Below, in pieces: positions 1,279-3,083 of a DNA stretch of 3,083 nucleotides. The notes under the pieces are model-generated. The model searched no databases. It saw only the letters and a list, made by a program, of their open reading frames with translations, and had not been told where the DNA came from. The DNA lies in assembly GCF_054482595.1 (NCBI RefSeq), contig NZ_JBTHVH010000002.1; one strand, written 5' to 3'. Position 1 is the stretch's first letter. Every line of letters begins with the position of its first letter. Source of the stretch: a plasmid. The position numbers and the translations under genes are program-made.

Positions 1279-1369
1279 AGACGGTCTATCAGACGTCATC
1301 AGACCGTCTATCAAAAAACACGTTGATTTTGATAGACCGCGAATCTAAAGTTGAATCTTGTCTATCAAA
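1279..1369. repeat. Iteron/operator cluster, consensus AGAC(C/G)GTCTATCA, three direct copies and one inverted copy
   Basis: AGACGGTCTATCA at 1279-1291; AGACCGTCTATCA at 1301-1313; GTCTATCA at 1362-1369; inverted TGATAGACCG at 1331-1340; a degenerate copy AGACGTCATCA at 1291-1301. The first two copies are 22 bp apart and each contains the 9-bp palindrome AGAC-N-GTCT. The cluster sits immediately upstream of the winged-helix gene. Confidence 0.65.
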
Positions 1370-2761: not shown

Positions 2762-3083
2762 TTATCTGTCGAATAAGTTAGAGCCTGGGTATTTATTTTT
2801 GTGCTCTCTTTTTATTATTTTTATTTCCTCTATTATTAAATCCATCTCTTTATAAATATTTGAAATTTTCTGTGTTATCTCTTTCATTTCAGTACAGAGT
2901 GAAATTATTTTATGCATCACCTCTAGGTACTCTTTATCATTCGGACTCATCCCTTTATCAAATAATTTTTTCTGCATCCGACCAAGTTGTATTAATTCAT
3001 CTAGATATCTAGAAGGCACGCGCTGTTTTATTTCATTATTTAAACTTACTGTCCTTATATACTCTGAGATTGTCAGCCCTTCG
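2762..3083 (-). CDS. Hypothetical protein, 5'-partial (frame open to the window edge), AT-rich; function unknown
   Basis: Track ORF 2762-3019 begins at a GTG with no ribosome-binding site. The same frame has no stop for 21 more codons to position 3083 (…EGLTISEYIRTVSLNNEIKQR-VPSRYLDEL…), so the true start probably lies beyond the window. Stop TAA (plus-strand TTA 2762-2764). Convergent with the 1927-2715 gene. Confidence 0.5.
   Translation of the reverse strand, partial: EGLTISEYIRTVSLNNEIKQRVPSRYLDELIQLGRMQKKLFDKGMSPNDKEYLEVMHKIISLCTEMKEITQKISNIYKEMDLIIEEIKIIKREHKNKYPGSNLFDR

Follow-up and report, generated by a model that had tools for sequence, protein, structure and literature searches.

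Upstream of the plasmid replication gene repL, we identified five copies of a short repeat, which we propose to be binding sites of the RepL protein with a dual role, as part of the replication origin and as an autoregulatory operator. From comparison of sequences across related plasmids, we put the probability of this reading at roughly 0.6. Its parts differ in strength: binding of RepL to the sites is very probable, an operator function of the three copies I1, D3 and I2 is likely, and an origin role of the two copies D1 and D2 is reasonably probable.

The plasmid and its genes

The window, that is, the whole stretch of 3,083 nucleotides that was analysed, is the complete circular E. coli plasmid pLH10-b-1-j (NZ_CP100540.1; 3,083 bp), rotated by 1,325 bases. 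This cryptic plasmid originates from poultry faeces, is typed as Col(MG828) and carries three annotated genes.

1383-1913, + strand: repL (RefSeq WP_032188789.1, named RepL; 176 amino acids)
1927-2715, annotated from 1903, + strand: open reading frame of unknown function (262-270 amino acids), overlapping the end of repL
2762-3083 plus 1-107, across the window ends, - strand: MobA accessory gene

The open reading frame at 1927-2715 yielded zero matches in Pfam, NCBIfam and PHROGs. It was found in three relatives of 3.1 kb and is missing from the common RepL plasmids of 2.3-2.5 kb, and the middle part of its product is rich in lysine and glutamate. Adjoining the MobA accessory gene, a ColE1-type oriT-like stretch (136-221), starting with GGGTGTCGGGGC, shows 74% identity to positions 434-517 of pKL1. 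The plasmid itself has no relaxase gene and is called non-mobilizable by MOB-suite. Between the oriT-like region and a G+C-rich module lie about 160 bp of very A+T-rich DNA (290-450), with no notable open reading frame. A co-resident ColE1 replicon, assumed in the preliminary description, was ruled out, as Rfam finds neither RNAI nor RNAII (for RNAI, none in the window at E <= 1); therefore, there is no ColE1 replicon to disable. RNAI was also not found at the gathering score in pKL1 or in a 2.4-kb relative.

RepL is predicted to be a single winged-helix protein

The repL product matches only one Pfam family, RepL (PF05732), with an i-Evalue of 6.1e-7 over residues 35-174, and it gave no match in PHROGs and none at threshold in NCBIfam. 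The AlphaFold2 model, based on a 32-sequence alignment, revealed a confident single winged helix-turn-helix core spanning residues 57-151, with a predicted recognition helix at residues 124-136 and a predicted beta wing at residues 140-151. The N-terminal 55 residues are modelled at low confidence, so that other DNA contacts are not assessable there. Searching with this model by the program Foldseek returned weak and generic winged-helix matches only (TubR, ETS, MarR and ORC, all at E >= 0.14), the top one being the centromere-binding protein TubR. In the PDB, the RepL sequence found no relevant relative, the one marginal match being the unrelated PmoD at an E-value of 0.028. RepL of phage P1 was considered as a relative as well; no evidence of homology was obtained, and it is treated here as sharing the name only. 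Taken as a RepL-family protein with a single winged helix, and with no DnaA box beside its repeats, the protein does not bear out the Rep-iteron framing of the preliminary description in its classical Rep_3 form.

A five-site repeat array at the start of repL

Counting both strands, the 3,083-bp plasmid contains four exact copies of the 8-mer GTCTATCA, all of them within 84 bp (1284-1367). A fifth copy, inverted and with one mismatch (TGATAAAC, 1384-1391), lies over the ATG at 1383. The centre-to-centre spacings along the five sites are 22, 24, 30 and 24 bp.

1284-1291 (+), 1306-1313 (+), 1330-1337 (-), 1360-1367 (+): exact GTCTATCA cores
1279-1294, + strand: D1, palindrome AGACGGTCT (1279-1287) and core GTCTATCA (1284-1291)
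1301-1316, + strand: D2, palindrome AGACCGTCT (1301-1309) and core GTCTATCA (1306-1313), 22 bp after D1
1327-1337, - strand: I1, inverted copy TTTTGATAGAC in the promoter spacer
1360-1370, + strand: D3, direct copy GTCTATCAAAA at about +1, with the Shine-Dalgarno sequence AAAGG (1371-1375) downstream
1381-1391, - strand: I2, inverted copy TTATGATAAAC, degenerate, across the start codon of repL

Dinucleotide-preserving shuffling of the plasmid (1,000 rounds) and of the segment 1210-1400 (2,000 rounds) never placed four non-overlapping copies of any one 8-mer within 100 bp, which, at 0/3,000 in total, indicates that the four exact GTCTATCA copies are not due to chance. The cluster of repeats that had been described at 1279-1369 is thus confirmed. 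Its extent and orientation required correction: an inverted copy does exist, but there are two of them instead of one, and the array extends to position 1391. A repeat search further revealed a 32-nt near-palindromic unit that is present twice, at 1306-1337 and at 1360-1391 (78%); in the first of these, D2 (1306-1316) and I1 (1327-1337) form a perfect 11-nt inverted repeat.

The palindrome AGAC-N-GTCT, previously taken as the core of the repeats, is real. It occurs only at 1279-1287 and 1301-1309, however, and therefore extends D1 and D2 and not the other three sites. In relatives, a palindrome of the same 4+1+4 form recurs with other letters, as AGAC[G/C]GTCT, CTAC[G/C/A]GTAG or CTTC-C-GAAG. 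As a general feature of the repeat the palindrome was not borne out; it is missing from the second Vibrio copy and from both Zymomonas copies, and it is therefore not essential to the repeat, yet probably functional.

Within repL codons 4-8 (1393-1405), 33 bp after D3, the sequence GGTCGATACAAAA resembles the repeat (GGTCTATCAAAA with one extra base). It is kept in relatives, but the same codons specify the conserved RYKTNP motif, and the likeness to the repeat may thus be a coincidence.

The layout is fixed and the cores change

DNA of the window is common to only eight plasmids. Alignment of six close relatives (three E. coli plasmids, pColZ, pZF002 of Vibrio metoecus and the window), down to 75% identity, showed that the four exact cores, a promoter of the form TTGATT-17 nt-TAAGAT and two upstream blocks are kept, while the stretches between them vary freely. 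For a wider view, RepL relatives were found by tblastn in 203 plasmid records of PLSDB, and a pattern scan of GTDB genomes yielded 36 loci. Repeat positions were counted from the conserved arginine codon of RYKTNPF.

In more than 30 loci, spanning Gamma-, Alpha- and Betaproteobacteria, Bacteroidota and various metagenome-assembled genomes, the repeats lie at the same positions, namely -111 (+), -89 (+), -65 (-), -35 (+) and -11 (-). D1 at -111 and D2 at -89 are found in many lineages, I1 at -65 is inverted in nearly all, and D3 at -35 is present in the window group and in the loci L022, L036 and L037. The period of the direct repeats in relatives is 21-22 bp, with arrays of two to four copies. 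The letters of the core change among these loci. The core GTCTATCA is used by the window group, Zymomonas pZMOB06, Buttiauxella and a Bartonella plasmid, and GTAGCTCA or GGCTCA by pBGR2 and by several loci of E. coli, Vibrio, Pseudomonas, Flagellimonas and Rodentibacter; other lineages have GGTCA, TGCTATCA, AAGCCCA or TATTCTCA. The repeats travel with repL whatever the mob content of the plasmid, as pBGR2 and pZMOB06 carry MOBV whereas pZF002 and pColZ carry none.

Two more distant loci show repeats of their own. In pBI143 (1410-1580), whose RepA is about 32% identical to RepL of the window, TGGAAAAT/ATTTTCCA repeats occur in both orientations upstream of repA, one of them over the ATG (ATGGAAAAT). 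This plasmid is an abundant Bacteroides gut plasmid and among the most numerous elements in the human gut; three versions have been published, differing mainly in repA, and a one-version-per-person pattern has been reported. Repeats that differ in step with the repA versions might explain this pattern. The second locus, in K. pneumoniae pINF118_8 (1140-1370), encodes a RepL relative of 34% identity and contains about four direct repeats of 21-22 bp, after which come an 11-nt inverted-repeat pair in three copies, TTTATCGTTTT/AAAACGATAAA, and then TTGACA-16 nt-TATAAC. Its layout is very like the description of pIGMS31, and a tblastn search with its protein did not confirm membership in the pHW126-like group.

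The core class tracks the predicted recognition helix

Comparison of the repeats with the RepL sequences revealed an association between the core and residue 128, which lies in the predicted recognition helix. This residue is alanine or tryptophan in all 10 aligned proteins with CTATCA-type cores (the window, L002, L004, L006, L008, L011, L017, L027, L029 and L032). In the 12 proteins with GCTCA cores, counting the CGCTCA variant L030, it is lysine without exception (L009, L010, L012, L013, L014, L018, L020, L021, L022, L026, L030 and L037; the helix of L037, which is outside alignment A2, was read separately). Lysine is also found in all proteins with GCCCA, GGTCA or GTATCA cores. In addition, residue 132 is asparagine in 11 of the 12 GCTCA-core proteins and alanine in L030.

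A neighbour-joining tree that was constructed without the helix columns, and that carries no support values, distributes the CTATCA class over at least three clades. The protein of L010, 73% identical to that of the window, is paired with GTAGCTCA, and that of pZMOB06, at 66% identity, is paired with GTCTATCA. The association is correlative but replicated across lineages, and it is partly confounded by shared ancestry. As the core class tracks residue 128 of the predicted recognition helix and the layout is fixed, the repeats are very probably the binding sites of RepL.

The promoter-proximal sites

The copies I1, D3 and I2 lie around a putative repL promoter.

1323-1351, + strand: inferred repL promoter, -35 hexamer TTGATT (1323-1328), 17-nt spacer and -10 hexamer TAAAGT (1346-1351)

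This promoter scores 8 of 12 against the consensus, below the threshold of a consensus promoter scan; its hexamers and spacing are kept in relatives, as TTGATT or TTGTTT, 17 nt, and TAAGAT, TAGAAT or TATGAT. The scan itself reported TTGTCT-18-TATGAT, ending inside the ATG, which was dropped as the main promoter because transcription would start after the start codon.

I1 falls in the 17-nt spacer of the conserved promoter, and an inverted partial iteron on the rep promoter is thus present. In the six-plasmid alignment D3 follows the -10 hexamer by 8-9 nt, so that the overlaps on the operator side are I1 on the promoter spacer, D3 at about +1 and I2 on the ATG. I2, at position -11, co-varies with the core in L010, L018, L023, L036, L037 and L014: the start-codon copy is ATGAGCTAC with the core GTAGCTCA, ATGGGCTT with AAGCCCA and TGAGACTA with TATTCTCA. 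This co-variation indicates that the first rep codons are constrained by a DNA site.

The upstream block and the G+C-rich module

Four features lie upstream of D1.

747-1208, no strand assigned: G+C-rich accessory module, 89.6% identical to pKL1 1515-1549 plus 1-427
1115-1180, + strand (inferred): primosome-assembly-site-like (ssi/pas) sequence, containing GAGGAAGCGGAAGAG
1215-1229, + strand: box A, AAGAACTAAGAAGAG (family consensus AAGAACTAAGAAGGG)
1264-1277, + strand: box B, TTTTCAGATCATGT (family consensus TTTTCAGGATCTGT), abutting D1

Box A was found in 21 of 23 loci at no more than 4 mismatches, and in at least 12 loci its distance to D1, which follows downstream, is exactly 69 nt irrespective of the repeat core. 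Box B is kept in loci of Escherichia, Vibrio, Zymomonas, Bartonella, Pseudomonas, Flagellimonas and Rodentibacter with differing repeat cores. In enteric and certain further hosts, box B often includes the Dam site GATC, in place of which Bartonella and Zymomonas carry GAATC. Extra DNA between this region and the gene, as in Zymomonas, L012 and L029, leaves box A, box B, D1, D2 and I1 in one rigid block. Boxes A and B may be the actual initiation site or a site for a host factor. The double-strand origin of rolling-circle plasmids consists of a conserved nic locus and a specific bind locus (reported by del Solar et al., 1998), and an invariant box beside Rep-specific repeats is, by analogy, the same logic.

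The G+C-rich module is present in 951 plasmid records and is common to pKL1-type and other small plasmids typed as Col(MG828). RepA of pKL1 is unrelated to RepL (BLASTP E = 11), and the module is therefore a Rep-independent accessory. A replicon link to pKL1 RepA, considered in view of the same Col(MG828) typing, was accordingly rejected, the module being all that is common. The module probably explains why plasmids with unrelated Reps are typed as Col(MG828); if so, the type marks an accessory module and not a replicon.

The stretch 1115-1180 aligns with pColZ 82-147, at 88% over 43 nt plus a 13-nt exact block, which Micenkova et al. called a phiX174-type primosome assembly site (PMC6668396). 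Folding of 1090-1280 as single-stranded DNA was no better than that of shuffled sequences on either strand (z = -1.1 and -0.8), so the ssi call is drawn only from homology and the published annotation. DnaA boxes (TTATCCACA, up to 2 mismatches) gave 11 matches against 11.0 expected, with none in 1200-1400. The G+C content directly upstream of the repeats is 0.40-0.46, and no obvious A+T-rich unwinding element or 13-mer region adjoins them.

A proposed model of RepL action

The preliminary description had suggested that the sites might serve the 1383-1913 product as origin iterons and operator at once. Apart from the classical iteron framing, this suggestion gained support from the comparison, in that the cores are kept while the spacers vary, the layout is fixed and the core tracks the helix. 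We therefore retain it in the following form. The origin would be the upstream block, consisting of boxes A and B and then D1 and D2. Upon the binding of RepL to D1 and D2, phased 22 bp apart, initiation by nicking or melting, in a rolling-circle or a theta mode, would be directed to a place in or next to boxes A and B, and the primosome-assembly-like site beside the block would prime the other strand. RepL bound at I1, D3 and I2 would occlude the promoter, the transcription start and the ribosome-binding region, respectively. In this way RepL would repress its own promoter, and the negative feedback on its synthesis would set the copy number.

An unlikely, though not negligible, alternative is that the array is an operator only, with RepL dimers repressing repL and the origin residing in the boxes alone, in the G+C-rich module or inside repL. 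Three of the five sites indeed overlap the promoter, the start site or the ATG, and there are just two tandem direct copies, fewer than in classical iteron origins. The Rep of pIGMS31 showed much stronger binding to the inverted repeats near the promoter than to the iterons (bioRxiv 10.1101/2022.12.05.519187), and RepL of phage P1, which is taken here to share the name only, acts within its own gene at the proposed oriL (PMC9948254). An operator only, however, hardly accounts for D1 and D2. These are located 45-80 bp ahead of the -35 box, their palindromic extension is distinctive and co-varies, and they keep a strict 22-bp period, with three to four copies in relatives. Upon insertions they hold their place relative to boxes A and B and not relative to the gene, and in pIGRK and pIGMS31 it is the 22-bp-period iterons together with the CR that make up the minimal origin.

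A classical Rep_3 theta origin of the pSC101, F, R6K or pPS10 kind, with monomers on the iterons, dimers on the inverted repeats and DnaA-assisted melting, would give the textbook layout that is seen here, i.e. direct repeats at two helical turns and an inverted partial copy in the rep promoter. We regard it as improbable, since the protein matches PF05732 and not Rep_3, and its model is a single winged helix instead of a WH1-WH2 pair, with fold matches that are generic only. There is neither an enrichment of DnaA boxes nor an A+T-rich 13-mer region next to the repeats, and the pairing of an invariant box with lineage-specific repeats is the pattern of a rolling-circle double-strand origin. 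It is more improbable still that the repeats work for another protein or process, such as the accessory protein MobA, a factor of the host or a partition-like centromere. TubR is the top structural match, a weak one, and the RefSeq family name reads 'replication/maintenance'; against this, the repeats accompany repL whether a plasmid has other mob genes or none, their co-variation is with the helix of RepL, no partner NTPase is present and the plasmids are only 2-4 kb in size.

Going beyond the dual role of the RepL sites, boxes A and B with the 22-bp-phased repeats could represent a so far undescribed origin that defines a cross-phylum class of RepL-type replicons, with the repeat specificity readable from residues 128 and 132. 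We put this forward tentatively, as a possibility that is on balance doubtful. Were it true, the class would take in the pZMOB06 vectors, the Bartonella pBGR plasmids and, more distantly, pBI143; a single winged-helix protein without HUH or Rep_trans motifs would initiate at an invariant box, and incompatibility groups would be predictable from sequence alone.

Taken alone, this plasmid carries an ordinary control element in a little-studied family. Small plasmids of the RepL type are common and serve as vectors (pZMOB06), yet they carry no origin annotation. The five-site layout, the boxes and the helix-core association together offer a map for the design of minimal replicons, a way to predict incompatibility groups from sequence, and specific mutations for probing initiation by a single winged-helix protein. 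That Rep-binding repeats double as an operator is already known from textbooks, and a closely analogous layout has been dissected experimentally in a related superfamily. In the literature examined, there appears to be no description of the cross-phylum five-site layout, of boxes A and B or of the association between helix and core.

Comparison with known systems

Among the closest systems are the RepL plasmids themselves. RepL proteins of pZMOB06, pBGR2 (Bartonella) and pColZ (E. coli) are 62-83% identical to that of the window, and pZMOB06 and pColZ share its GTCTATCA core. Of these, pZMOB06 is the standard Zymomonas vector replicon (PMC10832546), and the origin of pColZ was placed by its authors in a G+C-rich region, the repeats not being mentioned (PMC6668396). 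The minimal replicon of pMOS6 (Paracoccus), also of the RepL family, consists of rep and an upstream region with two 18-bp iteron-like repeats (PMC3832669). The E. coli plasmid pKL1 (1,549 bp) resembles the window in its Col(MG828) type, a 460-bp G+C-rich module and the oriT-like stretch, whereas its RepA is an unrelated helix-turn-helix protein and its upstream repeats differ; its reported origin precedes rep and is accompanied by binding sites for Rep and by an inverted repeat (PMC3832669).

Similar to the Rep_3 plasmids, the window has direct repeats spaced by roughly two turns of the helix, and its rep promoter contains inverted partial copies. In the Rep_3 plasmids, these inverted partial copies mediate autorepression. 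The window differs from them in the fold and family of its initiator, in having neither DnaA boxes nor an A+T-rich element, and in its two tandem copies. With rolling-circle origins, such as that of pMV158 with its conserved nic and Rep-specific bind repeats, the window shares an invariant element beside lineage-specific repeats; a strand-specific lagging-strand signal just upstream is a further likeness, for which the pas-like site is the candidate. In contrast to the pMV158 type, there is no hairpin at the conserved box, and PF05732 is the only family found in RepL.

A close parallel in overall organization is provided by the pHW126-like plasmids of Enterobacterales (pHW126, pIGRK and pIGMS31), which combine an ssi, a conserved region, 22-bp-period repeats, promoter repeats and rep; the window matches this order, with a candidate ssi and with boxes A and B as a possible counterpart of the conserved region. 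In pIGRK and pIGMS31, the order is ssi, CR, four 20-bp iterons with 2-nt spacers, an IR/DR operator and rep; the minimal origin consists of the CR and the iterons, and the origin exerts incompatibility (PMC6854812; bioRxiv 10.1101/2022.12.05.519187). Their Rep is a dimeric winged-helix autorepressor, distantly RepL-like, that shows relaxase activity in vitro, and both rolling-circle and theta intermediates were seen (PMC6854812; bioRxiv 10.1101/2022.12.05.519187). The pIGMS31 authors assign it to a Rep superfamily without HUH or Rep_trans motifs (bioRxiv 10.1101/2022.12.05.519187). The conserved region of the window consists of two boxes about 50 nt apart and is likened to the CR of pHW126 by description, not by sequence; RepL is likewise compared with RepR/RepM by description only. 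In the pHW126-like group, Rep is a small, autorepressing winged-helix protein and transcription starts within a repeat arm, as it would in the window, where D3 lies at about +1. The window differs from pIGRK and pIGMS31 in having two tandem copies instead of four, and in reusing one 8-bp core at all five sites where those plasmids have distinct iteron and operator repeats.
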